Part shown: in pieces, positions 822 to 54,670 of the stretch
Layout: every line of letters starts with the position of its first letter
How positions within the stretch are numbered: the stretch's first letter is position 1
DNA from: Candidatus Brocadiia bacterium
GTDB taxonomy: Bacteria; Planctomycetota; Brocadiia; SM23-32
Direction: 5' to 3'
Assembly (NCBI GenBank): GCA_046538485.1
Contig: JBKHIT010000031.1
Location: 1 to 56,087 of the forward strand
Length of the DNA: 56,087 bases
Notes under the pieces: generated by a model
Database searches by the model: none
What the model saw: the letters and a program-made list of their open reading frames with translations, nothing else
What the model was told of the DNA's origin: nothing
Position numbers and translations under genes: made by a program

Positions 822-857
822 AAGGGACTTAAGGGACAGAATGGACGTAAGGAACGG
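822..857. repeat. 9-bp tandem array (AAGGGACnn) x4
   Basis: aagggactt aagggacag aatggacgt aaggaacgg. Confidence 0.8.
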
Positions 858-2428: not shown

Positions 2429-2516
2429 GGGGGACTAAAGGGACCAAAGGGACGGAAGGGGTACCTGAAACGTGACAACAAACTGCTTGAAATGCGACAT
2501 TCTGTAAGTCCCTTCA
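2429..2516. repeat. 9-bp-array element with conserved core, copy 1 (similar to 11050-11151)
   Basis: AAGGGACnn units, then acctgaaacgtgacaacaaactgcttgaaatgcg...tgtaagtcccttcag. Confidence 0.85.
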
Positions 2517-3203: not shown

Positions 3204-3238
3204 AGTCCCTCAGGTCCCTTCCGTCCCTTAGGTCTCTT
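3204..3238. repeat. 9-bp tandem array, GTCCCTT orientation
   Basis: agtccctca ggtcccttc cgtccctta ggtctctt. Confidence 0.8.
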
Positions 3239-3289: not shown

Positions 3290-6200
3290 ATGCCAGGTAT
3301 GACGAAGATCCTGACGAAACGCTGGTTCTGGATCACCTGTGTTTTTGCCGTTATTAACATTGTTGGACTGGCAAAAATTGTCTCCGTTCTGGAGGGACAG
3401 GAAAGCGGCCTGCAAGTCGAATCGTTCTCGCCGAGAGGCGAATGCCTTCGAGAATCGAAAATTGAAGTGACCTTCGACCAACCGATGGTTTCCGCGACCG
3501 GTCCGACGGGCCCAGAAGTCAGCTCTCTGGTTCAGTTCGATCCGCCGCTGAAAGGATCTTTCACGTGGACATCGCCCCGGAAACTGACGTTCTGGTCGGA
3601 GCAGCAACTCGCTGCGTGTTCCGAATACACCGCCACAATTTCGAGCGAGATGACGAGTCTTCTGGGATATTCCCTTGGGCAGGGCAGGACTTTCAAGTTC
3701 AACACACCCCCACTTCGTTTCACAAACATTTCCCAGGTCGGCTACGACAGGCGGGCCCGGGCGAGGCTCGGGCTTGAATTCAATAATAAAGTCGTTCCCC
3801 AGGAAGTCCGGCGCCATCTTACTCTCAAGAAGACACGCGATGAGAACGTCGAATTTAATGTTATTACCACCAATCCCGGATACACGGTGCTGGTGCGGAC
3901 AGAGCCGCTGAGTGAAGCGGGTCCGCTGACGGCGCGTCTTTCACAGAATCTCAACGCAGCCGGAGGCGGCCTGGGGCTGGCGGGAGAGACCACTCGCACG
4001 GTTCGAATTGAGCCGGGGATCCATATCGGCACCGCCGATGCGCGGTGCCCGTCCTGGGGCGACCCCTACATCCGGGTCAGATGCACGCAGGTGCCGCATC
4101 TCGAAACGGCGCGGGAATGCCTCCGGCTCAGTCCCCAAGAGGATTTCACACTGGAAAATTACTGGCGGGGGTTGAAACTGCGGGGCAAGTTTCAGCCGGG
4201 CGAGCGATACACCGTTCGTTTTCTCAAAGGTTTCAAGAGCGGCACCGGGGCATACCTCGGCCAGGATGTCACCCGCGAGGTCGTCATCCCCGATCTCCGT
4301 CCCGACCTGCGGTTCCGGACACGCGGACACTATCTGTCGCCGCGTGGGAATCTTCTGATCCCGCTGGAAACCGTGAATCTGAACAGGGCGGAAGTCCGGA
4401 TCGAGAAAGTCTACCACAACAATGTCGTTCACTATCTGCGGGACCAGGACTACAGGCGTCAGAACACGGCTCTGGGCCATGAGGTGGCCACAACGGAGAT
4501 AACTTATCCCGACGAACGAAATGCGGCCCAACAGCGTAACGTCGATCTGCGTCAGCTCCTTGGCGGTGATCCCTCCGGTGTTTATCTCATTTCCGCCCGG
4601 GATCCGAACAACCGCTGGCGACGGGACCGACAGCTGACCATTATCAGCGACCTCGGCGTCTCTGTGAAAACGTCCCAGCGAGATCTCTTCGTGTGGGTCA
4701 ACACTATCAGCGAGGCAAAACCGGTTTCCGGGGCAACCGTCACGCTTTACTCAGCGTCGAATCAGAAACTCATCGCGGGCAAGACTGATGAGGAAGGGGT
4801 GGTTCATTTCCGGGATTTCGAGACCTCCGAACAACTTGAAGCGTATGCCGTTGTGGTTCGAAAAGGATCGGACGCTAACGCTCTGGTATTTTCGCGTAAT
4901 CGGGTGCAGGATTCGTCCTTTGAGATTGGAGGAAGGGCTTATCTTCGGGAAGGTTACGAGGCCCTGGTCTACTCCGAAAGAGGCATCTATCGTCCCGGGG
5001 AGACTGTGAATGTCCACGCTATTGTCCGCGGAGCGAAACGGCAAATGCCCGGCCGATTTCCGGTTACGCTCCGTATCATTTCTCCGGATGGCCGGCAGAT
5101 GCGGGAGTACAGCGCGCCTTTAAGCGATGAAGGATGCGCTGATTTTCGGACCGTTTTGCCGTCGTATGCGCTGACCGGTGGTTACCACGCGGAAGTTTCT
5201 GTTCCCGGAGCGAAGGAAGCCATCGGATCGCACTCGTTCCGCGTGGAAGAATTTGTACCCGATCACCTGACGGCAAGCGTTACGGCACCCGAACGGGTCT
5301 ACAGGGCGGGGGATACTCTGGAATTCGAAGTTTCCGGGTCTCATCTTTTTGGTTCGCCCGCCCAAAACCGGAAAGTGGACGCTCGATGTCGATTTGTTGA
5401 GTCCCGTTTCCGGCCCGACTCTTTTCAGGGCTATTCCTTCCGCGATCAGGAAAAAGGATTCAAGCCCATCGCCAAAAAACTGGGCGAAGCGCGACTGGAG
5501 GAGTCGGGCAAACACCTGTTCACCCTGAAAGTGCCAGAAGAAATCAAAGGTCCTTCTCTCGTGAAAGCGGTTTTCACCGCAAACATACACGAAGTCGGCG
5601 GACGCACGGTTTCCGCCGGACTGGAACGACAGGTTTTTCCGCACGGTGTTCTGGTGGGAGCGAAACGGAAGGCGAAGGGACATTCCGCCATCGGAAAGCA
5701 GGAAGAATTTGACTGCGTCCTCCTGGATCCTGATGGCTCGCCACTGGAAGAAGGATCGGTTTCGGTGAAAGTCTACCGGATCATCTGGCACACGGTCCTG
5801 CGGCGGGACCAGCAGGGCCGTTTCCGTTTCGAGTCGGACCGGGAGCTGAAAGAAGCCGGCGCTTTCAACTGTGAAATGCATCAGGGTACCGGAACCTGCC
5901 ATTTCACGCCGCAGGAATGTGGGAATTATCTCCTGCGATTCCAGGCACCCCGCGGAGAACATTCCGCAACGATTTCATTTTACTGTGGCGGCGGGACCCG
6001 AACGGTCTGGAATATGGAGGAACCCGACACGGTTGAGTTGACCCCTGATAGAGCGAGCTACGTTCCCGGGCAGACGGCCCGTATCGCGCTGAAATCTCCT
6101 TTTCCCGGCCGGGCCCTTGTGACCCTTGAAAGCGATCATGTGGTGTCGAGCCAGACTCTTACACTCGAAGGTAATACAACGGAGATCTCATTTCCCGTGG

Positions 6201-8722
6201 AGGAGACATGGTCGCCCGGTGTCTACTGCAGTGTTACGGTTATTCGGGCCGTTACTCCGGGTCAGGAGTGGCACGGTCACCGGGCGTTTGGCATCGTTCC
6301 GCTCCGTATCAATCACGATTCACAGCGACTCCGGGTGGAACTTGATGTGCCGGAGAAGATACGGCCGGAACGCCCGGTGGAAATCGGGCTTCGGGCGACG
6401 GATGGAGGGGGCAATGGCGTACCGGCGGAGATGACACTTGCGGCCGTCGATGAAGGCATATGCCAAATGTCGCGTTACAGCGCCCCCGACCCGATCCCCT
6501 TTTTCTATGGGAAAAGGCGTCTTGGTGTCGACACGTCGGACCTTTACTCCGCTCTGATGCCCGAGGTGAAAAGGCCGGTCGGGAGTGATTCGCTGGCCGG
6601 GGGAGGGCGCCGGAAGCGGCACGACAGACGGCTGCTGAACCCGATTGCCGCCCGGCGAGTCCGGACGGTATCGCTCTGGAAGTCGGAAATCCGGACCTCG
6701 GAAGAGGGACGGGCAAGCGTCAGCTTTGATATCCCCAGGTTCAACGGTCAGCTCCGGCTCGTGGCGGTTGCTGCATCACAGCGACGATTCGGGATCGCTG
6801 CGAAAAAAATATTGGTGCGTAAACCGTTGATGATCAAATGTTCCTCCCCCCGTTTCCTCGCCCCGAACGACGAGTTCGAAGTGCCCGTCACTGTTTTCAA
6901 CCATACGGGAACCGGCGGAAAGGTTAAAATTACAGCCGAGTTCGGGTCCGATCTGAAAGCGCTGTCTCCAGCCACCTTTGAAAAGAACGTTGAGGGAGAT
7001 TCAGACCGTACCACGAGACTCAAATTCCGCGCTCCGGAACTTCCCGGGAAAGTGGAAATGTCCGTCTCCGCCGTGCTGGGTGACGAACGCGATACGCGGA
7101 AAGTCGAGTTGTCGGTTCGCCCGCCCGCCACGCTGAGTCACGTCTGCGGTCGGGGTGAAGTGGTGGCCGGGGAGGTCGTCGAGGTTGACCTACCGAACGA
7201 CTGGGTCGCCGGCAGCAGCACCTGCCGCATCCGTCTCTCGGCAAAACCAGCCCTCCAGTTTGGCGAAAGTCTGAGCTATCTGCTTCGGTATCCTTACGGT
7301 TGCGCCGAACAGACAACGTCGCGGGTGTTTCCCCTACTCTGTCTCAGCGATATTGCAACTCTCGTCGAAACGGATCGTTTCCGGGGGGACGAGGTCGACC
7401 CTTTCATTCAGGCTGGCATCTGGCGGCTGATTTCGATGCAGACATACGACGGCGGTTTTGCGATGTGGCCGGGCGGGGGACGCCCCGACCCTTACGTCAG
7501 CGTCTACGCCACACATTTCTTGCTGGCAGCCCAAAAGGCCGGACATAAAGTGCCGGAGAATAATCTGAATGAGGCTTATTCTTATCTGAAAACCGTGGCG
7601 CGGGGATCCCGCAGAAAAACGCACACGCTCTCCACGAGAGCTTATGCCTGTTATGTTCTTGCAAAAGCCGGAAAGCCCGCCCGCTCCAGCACGATTCGCC
7701 TGTACGAGCGACGCGATAAACTGTCGACCAGTTCCCGGTTCCAAATCGCAGTGGCTCTGGCCGAAATGGGTGAAGAGGATCTGATCGATGAACTCGTCGG
7801 TGGGGGTGAAGTAGCGGGGACGGAAGCGGACGCTCTGCCCGACCACGGGTTTTCGTCTGTGGTTCGCGGCGATGCGATTTTGCTTTCGGCCCTCCTGAAG
7901 CTGCGCCCCCGCAGCCCGCATGTGCCTCTGCTGGCAGAAAGAATTTCTGGATCGATGCAAAACGGTCGCTGGAGAACGACACAGGAGAATGCCTTTGCTC
8001 TACTGGCGCTGGGACGGTACGCCCGGCAACGCGCCACAGAGACAGATGATTTTACGGCTCGTGTCCGGATCGACGGCCGGGAGCTGGGCCGATTTACGCA
8101 CCGGGATCAACCCGTGTTTGAGCCCGATGAAATCAGCGATGGCAAACTTCATATCAACGTTGAAGGGGAAGGGCGACTCTACTATTACTGGACGGTCGAT
8201 GGGATCCCGCTTTCGGAGAAAGTACCTGAAAAAGATCGTGGCATCGCCGTGCGCCGAAGGTATCTGAACCGGGATGGCCGTCCGCTGGACCTTTCGGAGG
8301 TGAAGCAGGGCCAGGTCGTCATTGCGGAGATCTGGCTTCGAGCCGAGCGGCCGGCCGACAATCTCGTGGTATCGGACCTTCTGCCGGCCGGTTTCGAGAT
8401 ACAGAACCCACGGATTGTGACCCGGGACACTGAGATGCCGGAGGCTACTGTCCCGTTCAATTTTGGTTCGGGGAGCGAGGGCCAGTTTGTGAGTCGGCGG
8501 AATGCCCGTCGTCTGAAACCGGAACATCTCGAGATGCGAGACGATCGACTTCTCCTGTTCTGTGATCTAAACGATGGCGGCGTCAGTTACTACCGTTACA
8601 TTCTTCGGGCGGTCACTGCTGGCACATTCAAGCTTCCGGCGGTTTCCGCCGCGTGCATGTATGAGCCCGAGATCCAGAGCGCCCACGGGAGGGGGGAGGT
8701 CCGGATTGTCCGTGAGCAATGA
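3290..8722 (+). CDS. Bacterial alpha-2-macroglobulin (YfhM-like), N-terminal membrane anchor
   Basis: 1810 aa; ERGIYRPGE, LAAVDEGI, thioester motif YPYGCAEQ (CAEQ at 7301-7312), WRTTQENA, DLLPAGFE; followed by pbpC as is typical. Confidence 0.95.
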   Translation: MPGMTKILTKRWFWITCVFAVINIVGLAKIVSVLEGQESGLQVESFSPRGECLRESKIEVTFDQPMVSATGPTGPEVSSLVQFDPPLKGSFTWTSPRKLTFWSEQQLAACSEYTATISSEMTSLLGYSLGQGRTFKFNTPPLRFTNISQVGYDRRARARLGLEFNNKVVPQEVRRHLTLKKTRDENVEFNVITTNPGYTVLVRTEPLSEAGPLTARLSQNLNAAGGGLGLAGETTRTVRIEPGIHIGTADARCPSWGDPYIRVRCTQVPHLETARECLRLSPQEDFTLENYWRGLKLRGKFQPGERYTVRFLKGFKSGTGAYLGQDVTREVVIPDLRPDLRFRTRGHYLSPRGNLLIPLETVNLNRAEVRIEKVYHNNVVHYLRDQDYRRQNTALGHEVATTEITYPDERNAAQQRNVDLRQLLGGDPSGVYLISARDPNNRWRRDRQLTIISDLGVSVKTSQRDLFVWVNTISEAKPVSGATVTLYSASNQKLIAGKTDEEGVVHFRDFETSEQLEAYAVVVRKGSDANALVFSRNRVQDSSFEIGGRAYLREGYEALVYSERGIYRPGETVNVHAIVRGAKRQMPGRFPVTLRIISPDGRQMREYSAPLSDEGCADFRTVLPSYALTGGYHAEVSVPGAKEAIGSHSFRVEEFVPDHLTASVTAPERVYRAGDTLEFEVSGSHLFGSPAQNRKVDARCRFVESRFRPDSFQGYSFRDQEKGFKPIAKKLGEARLEESGKHLFTLKVPEEIKGPSLVKAVFTANIHEVGGRTVSAGLERQVFPHGVLVGAKRKAKGHSAIGKQEEFDCVLLDPDGSPLEEGSVSVKVYRIIWHTVLRRDQQGRFRFESDRELKEAGAFNCEMHQGTGTCHFTPQECGNYLLRFQAPRGEHSATISFYCGGGTRTVWNMEEPDTVELTPDRASYVPGQTARIALKSPFPGRALVTLESDHVVSSQTLTLEGNTTEISFPVEETWSPGVYCSVTVIRAVTPGQEWHGHRAFGIVPLRINHDSQRLRVELDVPEKIRPERPVEIGLRATDGGGNGVPAEMTLAAVDEGICQMSRYSAPDPIPFFYGKRRLGVDTSDLYSALMPEVKRPVGSDSLAGGGRRKRHDRRLLNPIAARRVRTVSLWKSEIRTSEEGRASVSFDIPRFNGQLRLVAVAASQRRFGIAAKKILVRKPLMIKCSSPRFLAPNDEFEVPVTVFNHTGTGGKVKITAEFGSDLKALSPATFEKNVEGDSDRTTRLKFRAPELPGKVEMSVSAVLGDERDTRKVELSVRPPATLSHVCGRGEVVAGEVVEVDLPNDWVAGSSTCRIRLSAKPALQFGESLSYLLRYPYGCAEQTTSRVFPLLCLSDIATLVETDRFRGDEVDPFIQAGIWRLISMQTYDGGFAMWPGGGRPDPYVSVYATHFLLAAQKAGHKVPENNLNEAYSYLKTVARGSRRKTHTLSTRAYACYVLAKAGKPARSSTIRLYERRDKLSTSSRFQIAVALAEMGEEDLIDELVGGGEVAGTEADALPDHGFSSVVRGDAILLSALLKLRPRSPHVPLLAERISGSMQNGRWRTTQENAFALLALGRYARQRATETDDFTARVRIDGRELGRFTHRDQPVFEPDEISDGKLHINVEGEGRLYYYWTVDGIPLSEKVPEKDRGIAVRRRYLNRDGRPLDLSEVKQGQVVIAEIWLRAERPADNLVVSDLLPAGFEIQNPRIVTRDTEMPEATVPFNFGSGSEGQFVSRRNARRLKPEHLEMRDDRLLLFCDLNDGGVSYYRYILRAVTAGTFKLPAVSAACMYEPEIQSAHGRGEVRIVREQ

Positions 8723-11049: not shown

Positions 11050-11151
11050 AAGGGATGTAAGGGACCAAAGGGACAGAAGGGACACCTGAAACGTGACACA
11101 AACTGCTTGAAATGCGGCGTTGTGTAAGCCCCTCAGGTCCCTTCTGCCCTT
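11050..11151. repeat. 9-bp-array element with conserved core, copy 2; forward and inverted arrays could form a hairpin
   Basis: aagggatgt aagggacca aagggacag aagggacac, core ctgaaacgtgacacaaactgcttgaaatgcg, then agcccctc aggtccctt ctgccctt. Confidence 0.85.
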
Positions 11152-24037: not shown

Positions 24038-25540
24038 TCAGTCATCTTCCGCGAGCCAGGCTTCGATCCTGGCTTCATCATCATCGGTCCAGGGCATGAT
24101 GTCTTCGATGCAGAGGCGGTCGTATCCGCTGTAGATTTTCGCCATCATGTCCCGGTAGGTGCTGGCTTTCAGCTGCTGTTCGCGCCACTGCCGGAAACTT
24201 TCCCGGTCATACTGCCGCGTGCGGGAGTGGATCATGTCGGGATCGAAGTTTTCCGTAAGGATTGTGTCCAGCTCATTAACGATGTTGGGATTCTCAGCAG
24301 CGACGTTTTGCGTTTCCCATGGATCGTTCTCAAGGTTGAAAAGCTGAGGTTCGTAGCCGACGTATTTGATGTACTTCCAGGGGCCTCTGCGGAGCATGTA
24401 CATCCCCGTGCAACAGCGGTCGCCGTTGTACTCGCTGAACACCCAGTCGCGACGGTCGGATGTTCCTCCCGTGAGGAGCGAGATCAAAGACTGTCCGTCC
24501 AGAGAGTCGGCAAAACTGCCCCCGCGGGTAACGTCTCCGTATTCGAGCCCCGCCATGTCCAGGAAGGTGGGGTAAAGATCGATCAGGGAAACCGGTGTCT
24601 CTATTTCACTGCCCGAGCAGACATCCGGTCCGGTCACGATGAGTGGTTCGTGGACGGACGATTCATACATGGTGCGTTTGAGGACCTGGTTTTGTTCCCC
24701 CGCCATTTCCCCGTGATCGCTGGAGAAGATCACATAGGTTGAATCGTTGAGACCCAGATCTCCAAGCGTCTGAAGCACTCGTCCGACCATGTCATCGAGC
24801 GCGGCGATCATAGCGAAATAAATGTGGCGCATTTCGCGGACGAGCGCTTCAGAGAATTTTCGGTCGCAGTTTTTGGTGATCCGCTGATATAGATCGACGG
24901 GATGGTCGGATTCTTTGACATCTTCCAACCCGGGTGGGATCTCGATCTTATCGGCGTCGATACGGTCCATGTGTTTTTTGAGCGCATTGAACGCGGGGTG
25001 GACAAGACCGGTGGTCAGGTAGAGCATGAAGGGGCGGTCGGAATCGGCCGATTCTCGCAGCCAGTCGATGGCGCGGTAGGTGTTCTGCCAGTCCCAGCCG
25101 TTGAGATCTTCATCTTCCATGACCTGTGGCATGGGAGTGCGCGAGATGGGGCGGTGGATACGGGCTGTGCGAGTCCAGGAGCCCACGCGATCGCGGATGG
25201 AGTGTTTGCCATAGGTGTAATCAAGGGGTCCGAACGTCGCCGTCCGGTATCCGGCGTTTTCGAATGCCGTGCGGAACGTCGGCACGTCCTTGCGAATCCC
25301 CTCGTGGTTATTCCAGCAGTCATAGTGGTGAGGGTACTTGCCGGTCCACATGCTGGCCCGCGAGGGGTTGCAGACGGGGCAGTTGCTGTAGGCGTTGGTG
25401 AAGAGCGTGCCGCGACGCGCGAGCGAATCGAGGTTGGGGGTGGCGTTGCGGATGGGGGCGTGGCCCATGCAACCCATTTTACGCCCGTCCATGCTCTCGG
25501 CGTGGATGAAGACAATGTTCGGGGAGTCTTGTGAACCCAT
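24038..25540 (-). CDS. S1 sulfatase, arylsulfatase K (ARSK)-like
   Basis: CNPSRASMWTG, SDHGE; LDYTYGKHSIRDRVGSWTR, DWQNT, HPVD..TKNC blocks resemble ARSK. Confidence 0.9.
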   Translation of the reverse strand: MGSQDSPNIVFIHAESMDGRKMGCMGHAPIRNATPNLDSLARRGTLFTNAYSNCPVCNPSRASMWTGKYPHHYDCWNNHEGIRKDVPTFRTAFENAGYRTATFGPLDYTYGKHSIRDRVGSWTRTARIHRPISRTPMPQVMEDEDLNGWDWQNTYRAIDWLRESADSDRPFMLYLTTGLVHPAFNALKKHMDRIDADKIEIPPGLEDVKESDHPVDLYQRITKNCDRKFSEALVREMRHIYFAMIAALDDMVGRVLQTLGDLGLNDSTYVIFSSDHGEMAGEQNQVLKRTMYESSVHEPLIVTGPDVCSGSEIETPVSLIDLYPTFLDMAGLEYGDVTRGGSFADSLDGQSLISLLTGGTSDRRDWVFSEYNGDRCCTGMYMLRRGPWKYIKYVGYEPQLFNLENDPWETQNVAAENPNIVNELDTILTENFDPDMIHSRTRQYDRESFRQWREQQLKASTYRDMMAKIYSGYDRLCIEDIMPWTDDDEARIEAWLAEDD

Positions 25541-25616
25541 CTCTGGATCTCCATAATTTTGGTTGGCAAGGACGTGAGAGGATAGCGGGGCGGGGGAGTT
25601 GTTTCAATCGTAAAGG

Positions 25617-25712
25617 CAAGGGACTTAAGGGACGGAAGGGACACTTGCAAAGTAACAGTATTCTGTTTAAAAAGATATGTCTCTTGAGTCCCTTGCGTCT
25701 CTTTGGTCCCTT
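25617..25712. repeat. 9-bp-array element copy 3 (forward array, AT-rich core, inverted array)
   Basis: aagggactt aagggacgg aagggacac ttgcaaagtaaca... agtccctt gcgtctctt tggtccctt. Confidence 0.85.
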
Positions 25713-25734
25713 CTGGGTTTTCCGGGTATTTCGC

Positions 25735-26313
25735 ATGGCAGACAGCTTTATCCCACCACATGGCGGCTACCGCAAGTTGCTTTCCTACGAGAAGGCGACA
25801 ATTGTTTATGATGCCACGGTATATTTCTGTGATCGCTTTTTGAGCAAGAAGGACCGGACTTATGACCAGATGATCCAGGCGGCCCGATCTGGCAAACAGA
25901 ATATCGTCGAGGGGAGTCAAGCCTCTGGCACCTCGAAGTCAACCGAACTAAAACTTACAGGGGTAGCACGGGCCAGCTTGGCGGAACTTCTTGCCGACTA
26001 CCGTGACTTCCTTCGGAAGTGGGATATAGAAGAATGGCCCCGGGAGCACCCGTATGCGCAACGTCTGAGCGAACTGAGCCGCCAGCGACCAGCGACCTAT
26101 GAAACGTTTCGCAAAGGGATTGAGCATCCCGACCGTGCGATATGCATTAATGTCATTATCGGGCTGATCAAACTGACTAACTTTCTTTTGGACAAGCAGA
26201 TAGAACGGCTCGAACGCGATTTTGTTGAAAAAGGCGGTGTGCGCGAACGTATGTTCCGCGTCCGAGTGAATAAGCGTGATAGAGAACGGAACGATTCAGA
26301 ATCCCATTATTGA
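25735..26313 (+). CDS. Four helix bundle protein (23S rRNA-IVS/Avd-like fold) with suffix domain
   Basis: GGYRKLLSY, DQMIQAARSGKQNIVEG, VARASLAELLADYRDFL, LERDFVEKGGVRERM; real start ATG 25735. Confidence 0.9.
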   Translation: MADSFIPPHGGYRKLLSYEKATIVYDATVYFCDRFLSKKDRTYDQMIQAARSGKQNIVEGSQASGTSKSTELKLTGVARASLAELLADYRDFLRKWDIEEWPREHPYAQRLSELSRQRPATYETFRKGIEHPDRAICINVIIGLIKLTNFLLDKQIERLERDFVEKGGVRERMFRVRVNKRDRERNDSESHY

Positions 26314-26315
26314 CC

Positions 26316-26342
26316 GGCCCCTTCCGTCCCTTAAGTCCCTTC
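26316..26342. repeat. 9-bp array immediately after the four-helix-bundle stop
   Basis: ggccccttc cgtccctta agtcccttc. Confidence 0.8.
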
Positions 26343-26514
26343 ACCCCGATTTGACAACCACAGGGAGTGTCTCGCTAAAATAAGTCCGTCAGAAACAACA
26401 CACACTTCTCCGGAAGTTACGTTTCCGGGAGCCGTTGTTACACGCTGTTTCTGCCTGCGGCGACCGATATCCGGCTCCGGGGTCGCTTCAGGCCTTTTCT
26501 GAGGATTACTGATC

Positions 26515-28494
26515 ATGGGAACAGTATTGATTGCTGTGGGTGCATTCGTATTCTATCTGATCGCCTATCATACGTACGGCCGCTGGCTGGCACGGAGTCT
26601 TTTTGGGCTCAGCGACGATACCACCACCCCGGCCCACGAGCTGGAGGACGGTGTGGATTTCGTTCCCTCGCGGAAAGAAGTGGTTTTCGGTCACCACTTC
26701 ACCTCGATATCAGGGACCGGCCCGATTGTCGGCCCGGCGATCGCTGTGATCTGGGGATGGTTGCCGGCACTTATCTGGGTTCTGGTGGGATCGGTGGTAA
26801 TGGGGGCGGTGCATGATTTCGGGGCCGTTGTGATGAGCCTGAGAAACCGTGGGGTCTCGATCGCTGACCTCACCGGTGAGGTAATTTGCCGCCGGGCGAA
26901 AACCCTCCTGCTGACTGTTGTGTTCTTTGAACTGCTGATCGTGGTGGCTATCTTTGTGCTCGTGATCGCGAGCGTCTTTGCGATGTATCCCCAGTCAGTT
27001 ATCCCGGTCTGGTGCGAGATCCCGATCGCGATTGTTCTGGGGGTTGTTATCGGGCGGGCAAAAAGCAGCAAGACCATCTGGGTTGCGTCGATCGCGGCAG
27101 TCGGCCTGATGTATGTGACCGTCTGGATCGGTTACCAATACCACATCAGCATGCCGGCGCTCCTGGGTTTCCCTCCGACGTTTGTCTGGGCGATTATCCT
27201 GTTTGTTTACGCCTTTCTGGCCTCGGTATTGCCGGTTCAGAGGTTGTTGCAACCACGGGATTTCATCAACAGCCACCAGCTGTTCATTGCGATGGGACTT
27301 TTGTTTATCGGTGTACTTGTGGCACATCCGACCATAGCGGCCCCGGCCACGCGGCAGAGCGTGGAGAACGCACCGGCATTTATCCCGTTTCTGTTCATCA
27401 CGGTGGCGTGTGGCGCGATCAGCGGGTTCCACGCGCTGGTGGGATCCGGCACGAGTTCCAAGCAGATCTCCGCCGAGAGCCACGCCCAGCTGATCGGTTA
27501 CGGTTCGATGCTGACCGAAGGGATGCTGGCGGTGCTTGTTATTCTGGCGGCCGGAGCCGGCCTGGCAATATCATACAATGACAGTATCACGCTGAAACCG
27601 ACCGACGTGACAAAAATTGAGGATGAAGCCAGGCAAACAGAAGTTGTGGGGTGGGCGGATTCCCTGGCCAGCGGCGAATCGATCCCGTCAATGCCTTCAC
27701 AAAAAGAATTGAAACAGAGCCTTCCAGAGGATGCGGCTGGTGTTGTCGGCACGCTTGGAACCCTGCGCGAGTTCCGTCAGATGAATGGCGAAAAACCTCT
27801 TGAGCGTGTGGATTCAGACGAGTTGGGACGGAACTACGCTGTGAAGCTTGACGGGGAAAGCGCCTGGAAATGGCATTATCGGAAATGGGATGCCGCCAGC
27901 GGGTTGGGCCCGAAACTCAAAGCCTTTGTCGATGGGGCGGCCAACCTGATGGGAAGTTTCGGAATACCCGTTGGCCTGGGAGTGGCCATAATGGGTGTCT
28001 TTGTGGCGAGTTTCGCCGGGACAACGCTCGATACGGCTACCCGTCTGCAGCGTTATATCATTGCGGAGGCCGGTGAGACTGTTAAGGTCTCTGTTTTGAA
28101 GAACCGTTACGTGGCGACGGCGTTCGTTGTGGTAACGGCGGGGGCACTTGCATTGTGGGATGGAAAAGGCGCCGGTGCACTGGTGCTCTGGCCCCTGTTC
28201 GGGGCCCTCAACCAGCTGCTGGCATCTCTGGCGCTTCTGATTCTGGCGGTGTATCTGTATCGACGGGGCAAACCGACCTGGATGGTTACGCTGCCCCTGG
28301 TTTTCATGCTGGTCATGACCGGATGGGCGATGGTGCTGAATATCTTAAAGTTCCAGGGTGAGTCCGCATGGCATCTGCTGATCATAAGCGGGATCGTGCT
28401 GGTGCTGCAGGTCTGGCTGACCGTTGAGGCCGCGATTATCTGGTTCAAGGTGCGCAAACAGCGTCAGGAGGGCTCCGTGGAGAAGGGCGGTTAA
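26515..28494 (+). CDS. cstA: Carbon starvation protein A family transporter
   Basis: TPAHELEDGVDFVP, FGHHFTSISGTGPIVGP, ACGAISGFHAL, TTLDTATRLQRY; many TM helices. Confidence 0.95.
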   Translation: MGTVLIAVGAFVFYLIAYHTYGRWLARSLFGLSDDTTTPAHELEDGVDFVPSRKEVVFGHHFTSISGTGPIVGPAIAVIWGWLPALIWVLVGSVVMGAVHDFGAVVMSLRNRGVSIADLTGEVICRRAKTLLLTVVFFELLIVVAIFVLVIASVFAMYPQSVIPVWCEIPIAIVLGVVIGRAKSSKTIWVASIAAVGLMYVTVWIGYQYHISMPALLGFPPTFVWAIILFVYAFLASVLPVQRLLQPRDFINSHQLFIAMGLLFIGVLVAHPTIAAPATRQSVENAPAFIPFLFITVACGAISGFHALVGSGTSSKQISAESHAQLIGYGSMLTEGMLAVLVILAAGAGLAISYNDSITLKPTDVTKIEDEARQTEVVGWADSLASGESIPSMPSQKELKQSLPEDAAGVVGTLGTLREFRQMNGEKPLERVDSDELGRNYAVKLDGESAWKWHYRKWDAASGLGPKLKAFVDGAANLMGSFGIPVGLGVAIMGVFVASFAGTTLDTATRLQRYIIAEAGETVKVSVLKNRYVATAFVVVTAGALALWDGKGAGALVLWPLFGALNQLLASLALLILAVYLYRRGKPTWMVTLPLVFMLVMTGWAMVLNILKFQGESAWHLLIISGIVLVLQVWLTVEAAIIWFKVRKQRQEGSVEKGG

Positions 28495-28559: not shown

Positions 28560-28586
28560 GGCCGCTTCCGTCCCCTGGGTCCCTTT
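28560..28586. repeat. Degenerate 9-bp array downstream of cstA
   Basis: ggccgcttc cgtcccctg ggtcccttt. Confidence 0.55.
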
Positions 28587-54635: not shown

Positions 54636-54670
54636 AAGGGGCGAAAGGGACTCAAGGGACGGAAGGGACG
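54636..54670. repeat. 9-bp tandem array x4
   Basis: aaggggcga aagggactc aagggacgg aagggacg. Confidence 0.8.

Follow-up and report, generated by a model that had tools for sequence, protein, structure and literature searches.

The stretch of DNA considered here, hereafter the window, comprises 56,087 nucleotides of contig JBKHIT010000031.1 (assembly GCA_046538485.1) from a Candidatus Brocadiia bacterium and contains, at positions 25618-26341, a gene for a predicted four-helix-bundle protein, P0001, that is enclosed by arrays of 9-nt units. On the coding strand this cassette reads AAGGGACnn three times, an AT-rich loop, four units of the GTCCCTTnn type, the open reading frame (ORF) and three GTCCCTTnn units, an arrangement on which direct reading, a pattern search and a repeat finder agree (Table 1). 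The 9-mer arrays are the only repeats that the repeat finder detects in 25400-26600. It reports 25618-25640 and 26319-26341 as a 23-nt inverted repeat with 100% complementarity, and the gene is thus enclosed. The inner arm shows 84% complementarity with the left arm and forms, together with the distal right arm, a pair of direct repeats (83%), one on each side of the ORF. A first-pass annotation of the same DNA had described the gene as tightly bracketed by GTCCCTT arrays, as lying between unrelated genes and as accompanied by neither a reverse transcriptase (RT) nor a recombinase in the window, and all three statements are confirmed: the gaps measure 22 nt before the ATG and 3 nt after the stop, the flanking genes code for a sulfatase and CstA, and none of the 36 long ORFs of the window matches RT, transposase or integrase families (0/36; Pfam, E<=1e-5). 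The third array, in the opposite sense (25618-25642), was absent from that description and is added here. The GC content at third codon positions (GC3) is 0.55 in the cassette gene and 0.73 and 0.68 in its neighbours. A candidate promoter can be read by eye in the loop (TTGCAA at 25645-25650, a 17-nt spacer and TAAAAA at 25668-25673); a consensus scan omits this site and instead places promoter-like sites at 25529-25557 on the plus strand and 25607-25579 on the minus strand.

P0001 matches the four helix bundle suffix family TIGR04258 over residues 136-181 (62.5 bits, cut-off 40; NCBIfam) and TIGR02436 with 26 bits at a cut-off of 24 (NCBIfam), and its score for PF05635, 22.9 bits, lies below the Pfam cut-off of 33.8. 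Judged from its sequence, the protein is a borderline member of the TIGR02436/PF05635 four-helix-bundle family, also known as S23p, the protein of intervening sequences (IVSs) in 23S ribosomal RNA (rRNA). A profile of 51 homologs retrieved no relevant sequence relatives from the PDB. The AlphaFold2 model built on the alignment of the 51 homologs has a mean confidence (pLDDT) of 88.9 and contains a core bundle broken by an insert at about residues 96-133, followed by a C-terminal helix. Using VIA-align, the model was superimposed on 2GSC (2gsc_B) with a Z score of 16.0 and a root-mean-square deviation of 1.8 over 113 residues, on 2RLD (2rld_E) with a Z score of 13.8, and on the Avd protein of diversity-generating retroelements (DGRs) with Z scores of 12.1 (8UB8), 12.0 (8UB7) and 11.4 (4DWL). 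Since unrelated helical bundles reach a Z score of about 11.7 in the same list, only the matches to 2GSC and 2RLD, the two family members with solved structures, stand clear; these two structures also occupy the top Foldseek rows, with weak E-values of 0.035-0.17. An Avd-like four-helix-bundle fold, as assigned in the first-pass annotation, is supported by the model confidence and the matches to 2GSC, 2RLD, 8UB8 and 4DWL. The protein is basic (pI 9.3), no PADLOC (defence) or PHROGs (phage) family matches it, and its subfamily comprises 3,736 clusters at 50% identity.

Recurrence, arm layout and probable mobility of the cassette

In a collection with one genome per species, 160 relatives of P0001 were found, and the best 80 loci, with 53-72% identity and distributed over more than 12 phyla, were examined for period-9 arrays, defined as three units with at least 5/9 identical columns no more than 250 nt from the gene. 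Such arrays are present at 71/80 loci, upstream at 63, downstream at 46 and on both sides at 38, compared with 2/80 for shuffled sequences, 11/80 for far flanks (400-900 nt) and 3-13/80 for periods of 7, 8, 10 and 11. A survey of this kind had been put forward in the first-pass annotation as a check, and its outcome supports the conclusion that gene and 9-mer arrays recur together as a single unit. The median gap between the upstream arm and the start codon is 18 nt (within 30 nt at 46/63 loci) and that between the stop codon and the downstream arm is 13 nt (within 30 nt at 33/46), and an internal period-9 array is found inside 16/80 genes. All called cores start with GTC, namely GTCCTTT at 21 loci, GTCCTTG at 15, GTCCCTT at 10 and GTCCCTG at 3, besides smaller classes and 15 loci without a call. 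The layouts include '<>[gene]' at 14 loci, '<[gene]>' at 10 and '<>[gene]>', as in the window, at 9.

One explanation of the arms that we consider unlikely is that they act solely as a long double-stranded RNA stem, which, as in IVSs of rRNA, is cut by RNase III, the cassette RNA being released or destroyed, so that the insertion is harmless to the host transcript, and that the protein ignores the repeats. When positions 25600-26360 are folded as RNA, the perfect 23-bp outer stem is indeed kept in both the minimum free energy and the centroid structure (z -2.7), the stem of the Coxiella IVS is cut by RNase III according to the excerpt consulted of PMC4990558, and relatives of the gene lie inside operons, with 7/11 loci between cas genes. 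However, among 70 pairs of arms from the same locus the complementarity is 90% in the cores and 50% in the spacers, the latter barely above the 41% obtained for spacers of arms from different loci (0.50 versus 0.41). The perfect stem of the window is an exception to this weak spacer pairing and points to a recent arm-to-arm conversion. At 14/80 loci both arms are located upstream of the gene and no arm lies downstream, and a stem has no need of a tandem periodic core, yet the 9-nt phase is fixed and the arrays are capped at four units. Moreover, 69/73 orphan array loci of the source genome, described below, are single arms, and the neighbouring genes in the window are divergent, so that no host operon transcript crosses the cassette.

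Near-identical orthologous cassettes (L021 versus L022, L053 versus L056 and L041 versus L046) differ by whole units or by the loss of an arm plus loop; the unit differences amount to one 9-mer more or less, or to 11 versus 4 perfect units. Hence, the arms evolve through slippage of units and through deletions between arms.

The distribution of the gene is patchy. Protein homologs are encoded by 25/60 relatives of the source organism, the best one (68% identity) in another family of the same class, and this nearest homolog among the sampled relatives is accompanied by CAAGGAC/GTCCTT units. Of the 151 ORFs that neighbour the 80 homolog loci, 128 were scanned (the 23 omitted derive mostly from near-duplicate loci); they represent diverse housekeeping and assorted genes, including three type I specificity subunits, and none of the 128 belongs to an RT, transposase or integrase family. 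Among class-level relatives, 7/11 loci lie inside cas operons, adjoining Cas7, Cas4, Cas1 or Cas3, which fits a figure legend of PMC10910872 that lists "23S rRNA IVP" among the associations of the CRISPR (clustered regularly interspaced short palindromic repeats) adaptation module. The cas-operon homologs (L003-L008 and L012, in genomes G060, G034, G042, G059, G049, G037 and G047) show 52-55% identity, occupy cas7-cas4 or cas4-cas1 gaps and have downstream nothing but short 9-mers of the ATAGGAC/ATATGAC type; G042 possesses two copies. These genes may be hitch-hikers or may have a role in adaptation.

The gene is present at 0/11 cstA loci of relatives from other genera of the same family. At 3/11 of these loci a distant sulfatase gene (21-25% identity) is divergent from cstA with a gap of 117-192 nt, and a bioB-like gene lies beside the best cstA ortholog. 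As the cstA loci vary in this manner, synteny is not conserved, and the search for empty sulfatase-cstA junctions, also suggested in the first-pass annotation, yielded no clean empty site.

No RNA run with this stretch was found. Four DNA metagenome runs, one of which (X1) is probably the source of the DNA, were compared as contigs over positions 24800-27200. In run X3, which belongs to another study, contig record 14 (1,519 nt, depth 7.3) carries in order 25025-25613 (32 differences), an inverted segment 25835..25632 (11 differences) and 26319-26882 (85 differences), and the joint 25632|26319 falls exactly in the arms, with five shared letters. In a close relative, this junction is therefore occupied by no more than the hairpin and the initial 100 nt of the gene, in flipped orientation, as would result if the left and distal arms had recombined to cause an inversion and a deletion had followed. 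The claim of the first-pass annotation that the cassette is mobile is supported in the sense of come-and-go behaviour by this flipped remnant, the presence of homologs in 25/60 relatives, the unrelated neighbours and the GC3 of 0.55. Two peptide patterns gave no match to viral contigs; 0/50,697 phage records and 1/72,556 plasmids had a match, the latter being a 568-kb Prevotella replicon.

The GTCCCTT unit and the paralogs in the source genome

The pattern GTCCCTTNNGTCCCTT, with two mismatches or fewer, occurs 25 times in the window compared with 0.54 expected (100 shuffles, maximum 3), and in the source assembly (G000; 5.19 Mb, 143 contigs, 88% complete) the two-unit pattern has 62 exact matches and the reversed control none. 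In total, the genome contains 77 mostly intergenic arrays at 73 loci, of which 69 are single arms, three are hairpins and one is a tandem pair. Within the unit, positions 1-7 are 83-98% conserved and positions 8-9 use all 16 dinucleotides; neighbouring 2-nt spacers are identical in 2/108 cases. The arrays consist of two (n=12), three (n=26), four (n=37), five (n=1) or seven units (n=1), and such a sharp stop at four is not the outcome of replication slippage alone. A blastn search of the genome with 25541-26514 returned 23 high-scoring segment pairs, which are all confined to arrays apart from the self-hit and the paralog on contig C44 (73% over 165 nt). Conserved flanks are shared by 30/73 array loci, which form one group; at these loci the array is embedded in a different, larger dispersed repeat that spans about 200 nt (consensus of nine copies). 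The suggestion of the first-pass annotation that the cassette seeded the orphan arrays is therefore not supported. Both ends of the larger element carry a direct repeat containing GTTCTGAAC, and several copies lie less than 1 kb from contig ends, so that the element probably breaks the assembly.

The TIGR02436, PF05635 and TIGR04258 profiles identify further copies of the gene on contigs C137, C94 (split), C44, C97 and C26 and a fragment on C112. Each intact paralog has, as read by eye, its own flanking unit (Table 1). Genome-wide, pairs of the AGAACT unit are found at 11 loci and those of the GTGGAC unit at 5, and the C97 unit has 0 matches in a search at period 9 only, its true period being 10. 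In the C44 (74603-75154) and C97 (28096-28716) paralogs, arrays are also located inside the coding sequence, in the linker that joins the bundle core to the suffix domain, and since they are in frame the repeats are translated. The remnant gene at C112:18700-18830 has an internal deletion that fuses the N-terminal HGGYR motif to the C-terminal suffix domain, and it is flanked by TGGAC-type 9-mers upstream and a single AAGGGAC downstream.

It is likewise improbable, in our estimate, that the repeats are independent elements resembling repetitive extragenic palindromic (REP) sequences or miniature inverted-repeat transposable elements, which spread alone or with a host factor, and that the gene just happens to be located among them or exploits them as portable homology without binding. 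The imbalance between 73 array loci and one gene, the embedding of 30 loci in a larger dispersed element whose flanks are conserved, the common loop of two gene-less hairpins on C19, the existence of other repeat families for which no cognate gene was found and the GTCCCTT pairs of relative G043, which are located away from its homologs, all agree with such a scenario. It is difficult to reconcile with arrays of one GTC-core family lying tight on the ORF in 71/80 homologs from more than 12 phyla, against 11/80 in far flanks, and with the separate unit of each paralog in the source genome. In addition, GTCCCTT pairs are absent from 58/60 relatives, the exceptions being G043 (five matches) and G008 (one match), and the arrays are thus not a general host feature.

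The two gene-less GTCCCTT hairpins (C19:19030-19112 and C19:21953-22044; locus L114) have near-identical loops and flank a 963-aa ORF in direct orientation. That this pair might enclose an rRNA was considered and rejected, as no Rfam match lies between the hairpins and the 963-aa ORF is found there instead.

Table 1. Cassette components, flanking genes, orphan GTCCCTT arrays of the window, paralogs and larger-element copies of the source genome. Positions without a contig handle refer to the window.
Feature	Position	Strand	Description
Sulfatase gene	24038-25540	-	left neighbour of the cassette
Distal left arm	25618..25642	-	three 9-mer units; AAGGGAC on the plus strand, GTCCCTT on the minus strand
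Loop between left and inner arms	25643..25678	+	36 nt, AT-rich
Inner (proximal) arm	25679..25712	+	GTCTCTTga GTCCCTTgc GTCTCTTtg GTCCCTT; four units; ends 22 nt before the ATG
Four-helix-bundle gene P0001	25735..26313	+	192 aa; C-terminal suffix domain
Distal right arm	26317..26341	+	GCCCCTTcc GTCCCTTaa GTCCCTT; three units; starts 3 nt after the stop
cstA (CstA)	26515-28494	+	right neighbour of the cassette
Orphan array	822..855	-	four units, intergenic
Orphan array	2438..2453	-	two exact units plus degenerate neighbours; flank in common with the 11050 array
Orphan array	3205..3238	+	four units; belongs to the larger dispersed-repeat group
Orphan array	11050..11083	-	four units; weak opposite-strand pair at 11128-11143 (two mismatches)
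Orphan array	28570..28585	+	short, two units, one mismatch
Orphan array	54636..54669	-	four units, intergenic
Paralog	C137		AGAACT-type 7-mers in inverted arms
Paralog	C44		GTGGAC/GTCCAC 9-mer hairpins within the ORF and on both sides of it
Paralog	C97		CACGGAC/GTCCGTG 10-mers inside and after the ORF
Paralog	C26		TAGGTC 9-mers
Paralog (split)	C94		no repeat units
Larger-element copies	C126:537, C13:52524, C19:149, C20:29497, C40:1009, C67:199554, C85:368, C87:11945, C123:7547		plus 21 further array loci

Relation to known systems and a possible role of the protein

The closest parallel is provided by IVSs of 23S rRNA. As described in the excerpt of PMC4990558, the IVS of Coxiella burnetii has a 28-bp terminal inverted-repeat stem, the loop of which contains an S23p ORF, and its ATG is preceded by three tandem heptamers (GACAGAT) that differ in number between strains; the stem is cut by RNase III, and an older idea holds that the ORF serves mobility. 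The same excerpt presents ORF-bearing IVSs, with Leptospira included by citation, as sporadic and horizontally acquired sequences that encode no recombinase (PMC4990558). The cassette shares with the IVS, as far as it is depicted there, an S23p/four-helix-bundle gene within a terminal-inverted-repeat stem, tandem repeats before the start codon, a sporadic distribution with horizontal acquisition and the lack of an encoded recombinase. In contrast to the IVS, it is located outside rRNA (no Rfam match), between a sulfatase gene and cstA, its arms are built wholly of 9-mers with free spacers, its protein contains an insert as well as the TIGR04258 suffix domain, and copies of its unit are scattered over 73 loci of the genome. 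The ORF-bearing IVS has in this cassette a twin outside rRNA.

According to the portion of PMC6182149 consulted, Avd forms a barrel of five subunits with a strong positive charge and functions as part of a complex with the DGR reverse transcriptase and RNA, and PF05635 resembles Avd (PMC10053308). The modelled four-helix-bundle fold of P0001 (Z 11.4-12.1) and its basic character would be in line with this relationship, whereas no RT adjoins the P0001 gene or its homologs and the PF05635 score is below the cut-off. It is highly improbable that P0001 is an Avd-like accessory working in trans, which loads a genomic RT on the cassette RNA via the repeats so that the cassette or its arrays spread by retro-copying: the fold matches Avd in the DGR ribonucleoprotein (8UB8 and 8UB7) and the genome has six RVT_1 matches, but no RT is encoded in the window or by the 128 ORFs scanned beside the homologs, and on C44 and C97, which contain both a paralog and an RT match, the two are more than 50 kb apart, the remaining RVT_1 matches being located on other contigs. 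Nor was a poly-A tract, a template/variable repeat pair or another sign of retro-copying noticed, although no search aimed at these was made.

Two further groups of intergenic repeats bear comparison. In REP/RAYT (REPIN) systems, a single-copy gene is flanked by inverted short repeats that are also dispersed intergenically, and each gene lineage has its own repeat type; RAYTs (REP-associated tyrosine transposases) are HUH tyrosine transposases and REP repeats are single palindromes. The cassette gene is likewise flanked by inverted repeats that are dispersed in the same genome, but P0001 lacks an HUH (Y1) domain, with only four-helix-bundle families matching it, and its repeats are tandem 9-mers. 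The short tandemly repeated repetitive (STRR) sequences of cyanobacteria are intergenic tandem arrays of 7-nt units, of which a genome can have several types, and the source genome similarly contains several heptamer families. We know of no protein partner of STRR sequences, and none was searched for; a link between STRR-like arrays and four-helix-bundle genes would be new. Unlike CRISPR arrays, in which 20-40-nt repeats alternate with unique spacers of similar length, the units described here are 9 nt long and consist of a 7-nt core and a 2-nt spacer.

Tentatively, and with a probability that we place slightly short of even, we propose that the element is an IVS-like selfish cassette and that its protein binds the cores of its own repeats. 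P0001, as a basic and probably oligomeric protein, would bind the 7-nt cores GTCCCTT/AAGGGAC at 9-nt spacing, with up to four cores per array. As about 20 nt separate the proximal arm from the start codon, binding at this arm would permit autoregulation and could thus control the expression of the protein itself, and binding at both arms may mark the ends of the cassette or hold them together. Homology between the left arm and the distal right arm would allow inversion, and homology between the inner arm and the distal right arm would lead to loss of the gene, leaving a gene-less hairpin. Recognition of the cores is favoured by indirect signs, namely the 7-nt core with free spacers, the 9-nt phase, the four-unit cap, the paralog-specific units and the basic nature of the protein. 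We infer that reading of the cores by the protein is the most economical explanation of the periodic core conservation and of the paralog-specific units.

The link between unit and protein extends to the homologs: on a quick tree of 76 proteins, from which five rows with stops or truncation were removed, core types group loosely by protein clade, with at least eight T7/G7 changes.

Several points count against this proposal. In raw counts (Fisher), the G7 versus T7 core type is associated with residues 13, 65, 117, 146 and 148 (for instance, K13 in 14/17 versus 4/32), but a single independent pair is found on supported branches, and shared ancestry therefore explains the association equally well. 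The orphan arrays have no clear gene-direction bias, with 22 sense and 15 antisense cases in co-directional settings as judged from crude ORF calls, single arms prevail among them (69/73), and 30/73 array loci share flanks. The idea that the orphans are decayed copies of the cassette was rejected, as no orphan has cassette sequence beyond the array. In G043, all five GTCCCTT pairs are located away from its three homologs. For the heptamer array families GTCAGA, GATCAC, AACCAG and CAGAGG, no cognate gene was found in the 88%-complete assembly. Lastly, the inversion rests on the single 1,519-nt contig, for which an assembly error at the inverted repeat is possible.

A wider hypothesis, which at present appears rather doubtful, is that proteins of the S23p/Avd family read short tandem repeats in a sequence-specific manner, with a separate 6-10-nt unit for every lineage, that the gene and its inverted arrays constitute a widespread, recombinase-less mobile cassette invading 23S rRNA, operons (those of cas genes among them) and the gaps between genes, and that its decay products and copied arms make up much of the unexplained STRR-like arrays. 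To our knowledge, the PF05635/TIGR02436 family, although large, has been without an assigned function since the 1990s, and work on its relatives has been limited to Avd in DGRs and the ORFs of rRNA IVSs. Should gene and tandem-repeat arms prove to be a single unit throughout the phyla, three puzzles would merge into one testable system: the purpose of the IVS ORF, the origin of short tandem intergenic repeats and the presence of "23S rRNA IVP" genes in cas and restriction-modification operons. Were the hypothesis of 6-10-nt-unit readers true, the protein would be a natural, re-targetable repeat-binding module, and a protein whose specificity follows a simple unit of 7 nt would attract practical interest as a programmable nucleic-acid binder. 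No description of repeat-flanked four-helix-bundle cassettes outside rRNA was found in the literature searched, which did not cover subscription journals.

Other features of the genome and the window

The source genome also contains composite arrays of several heptamers or octamers at C15:4885-5030, C48:56809-56910, C48:77068-77362 and C17:238-293 and 5419-5489. These are STRR-like, combine the units CTGGTTn, GAGTTCTAA, GATCACC, TCTGACC and CCGTTC, and have no four-helix-bundle gene found adjoining them. The window contains no Rfam families or tRNAs. A gene for a bacterial alpha-2-macroglobulin of 1,810 aa occupies positions 3290-8722, and the window also encodes several sulfatases, heparinases and GH123/GH95 proteins, so that the region looks like a neighbourhood for the degradation of sulfated glycans.

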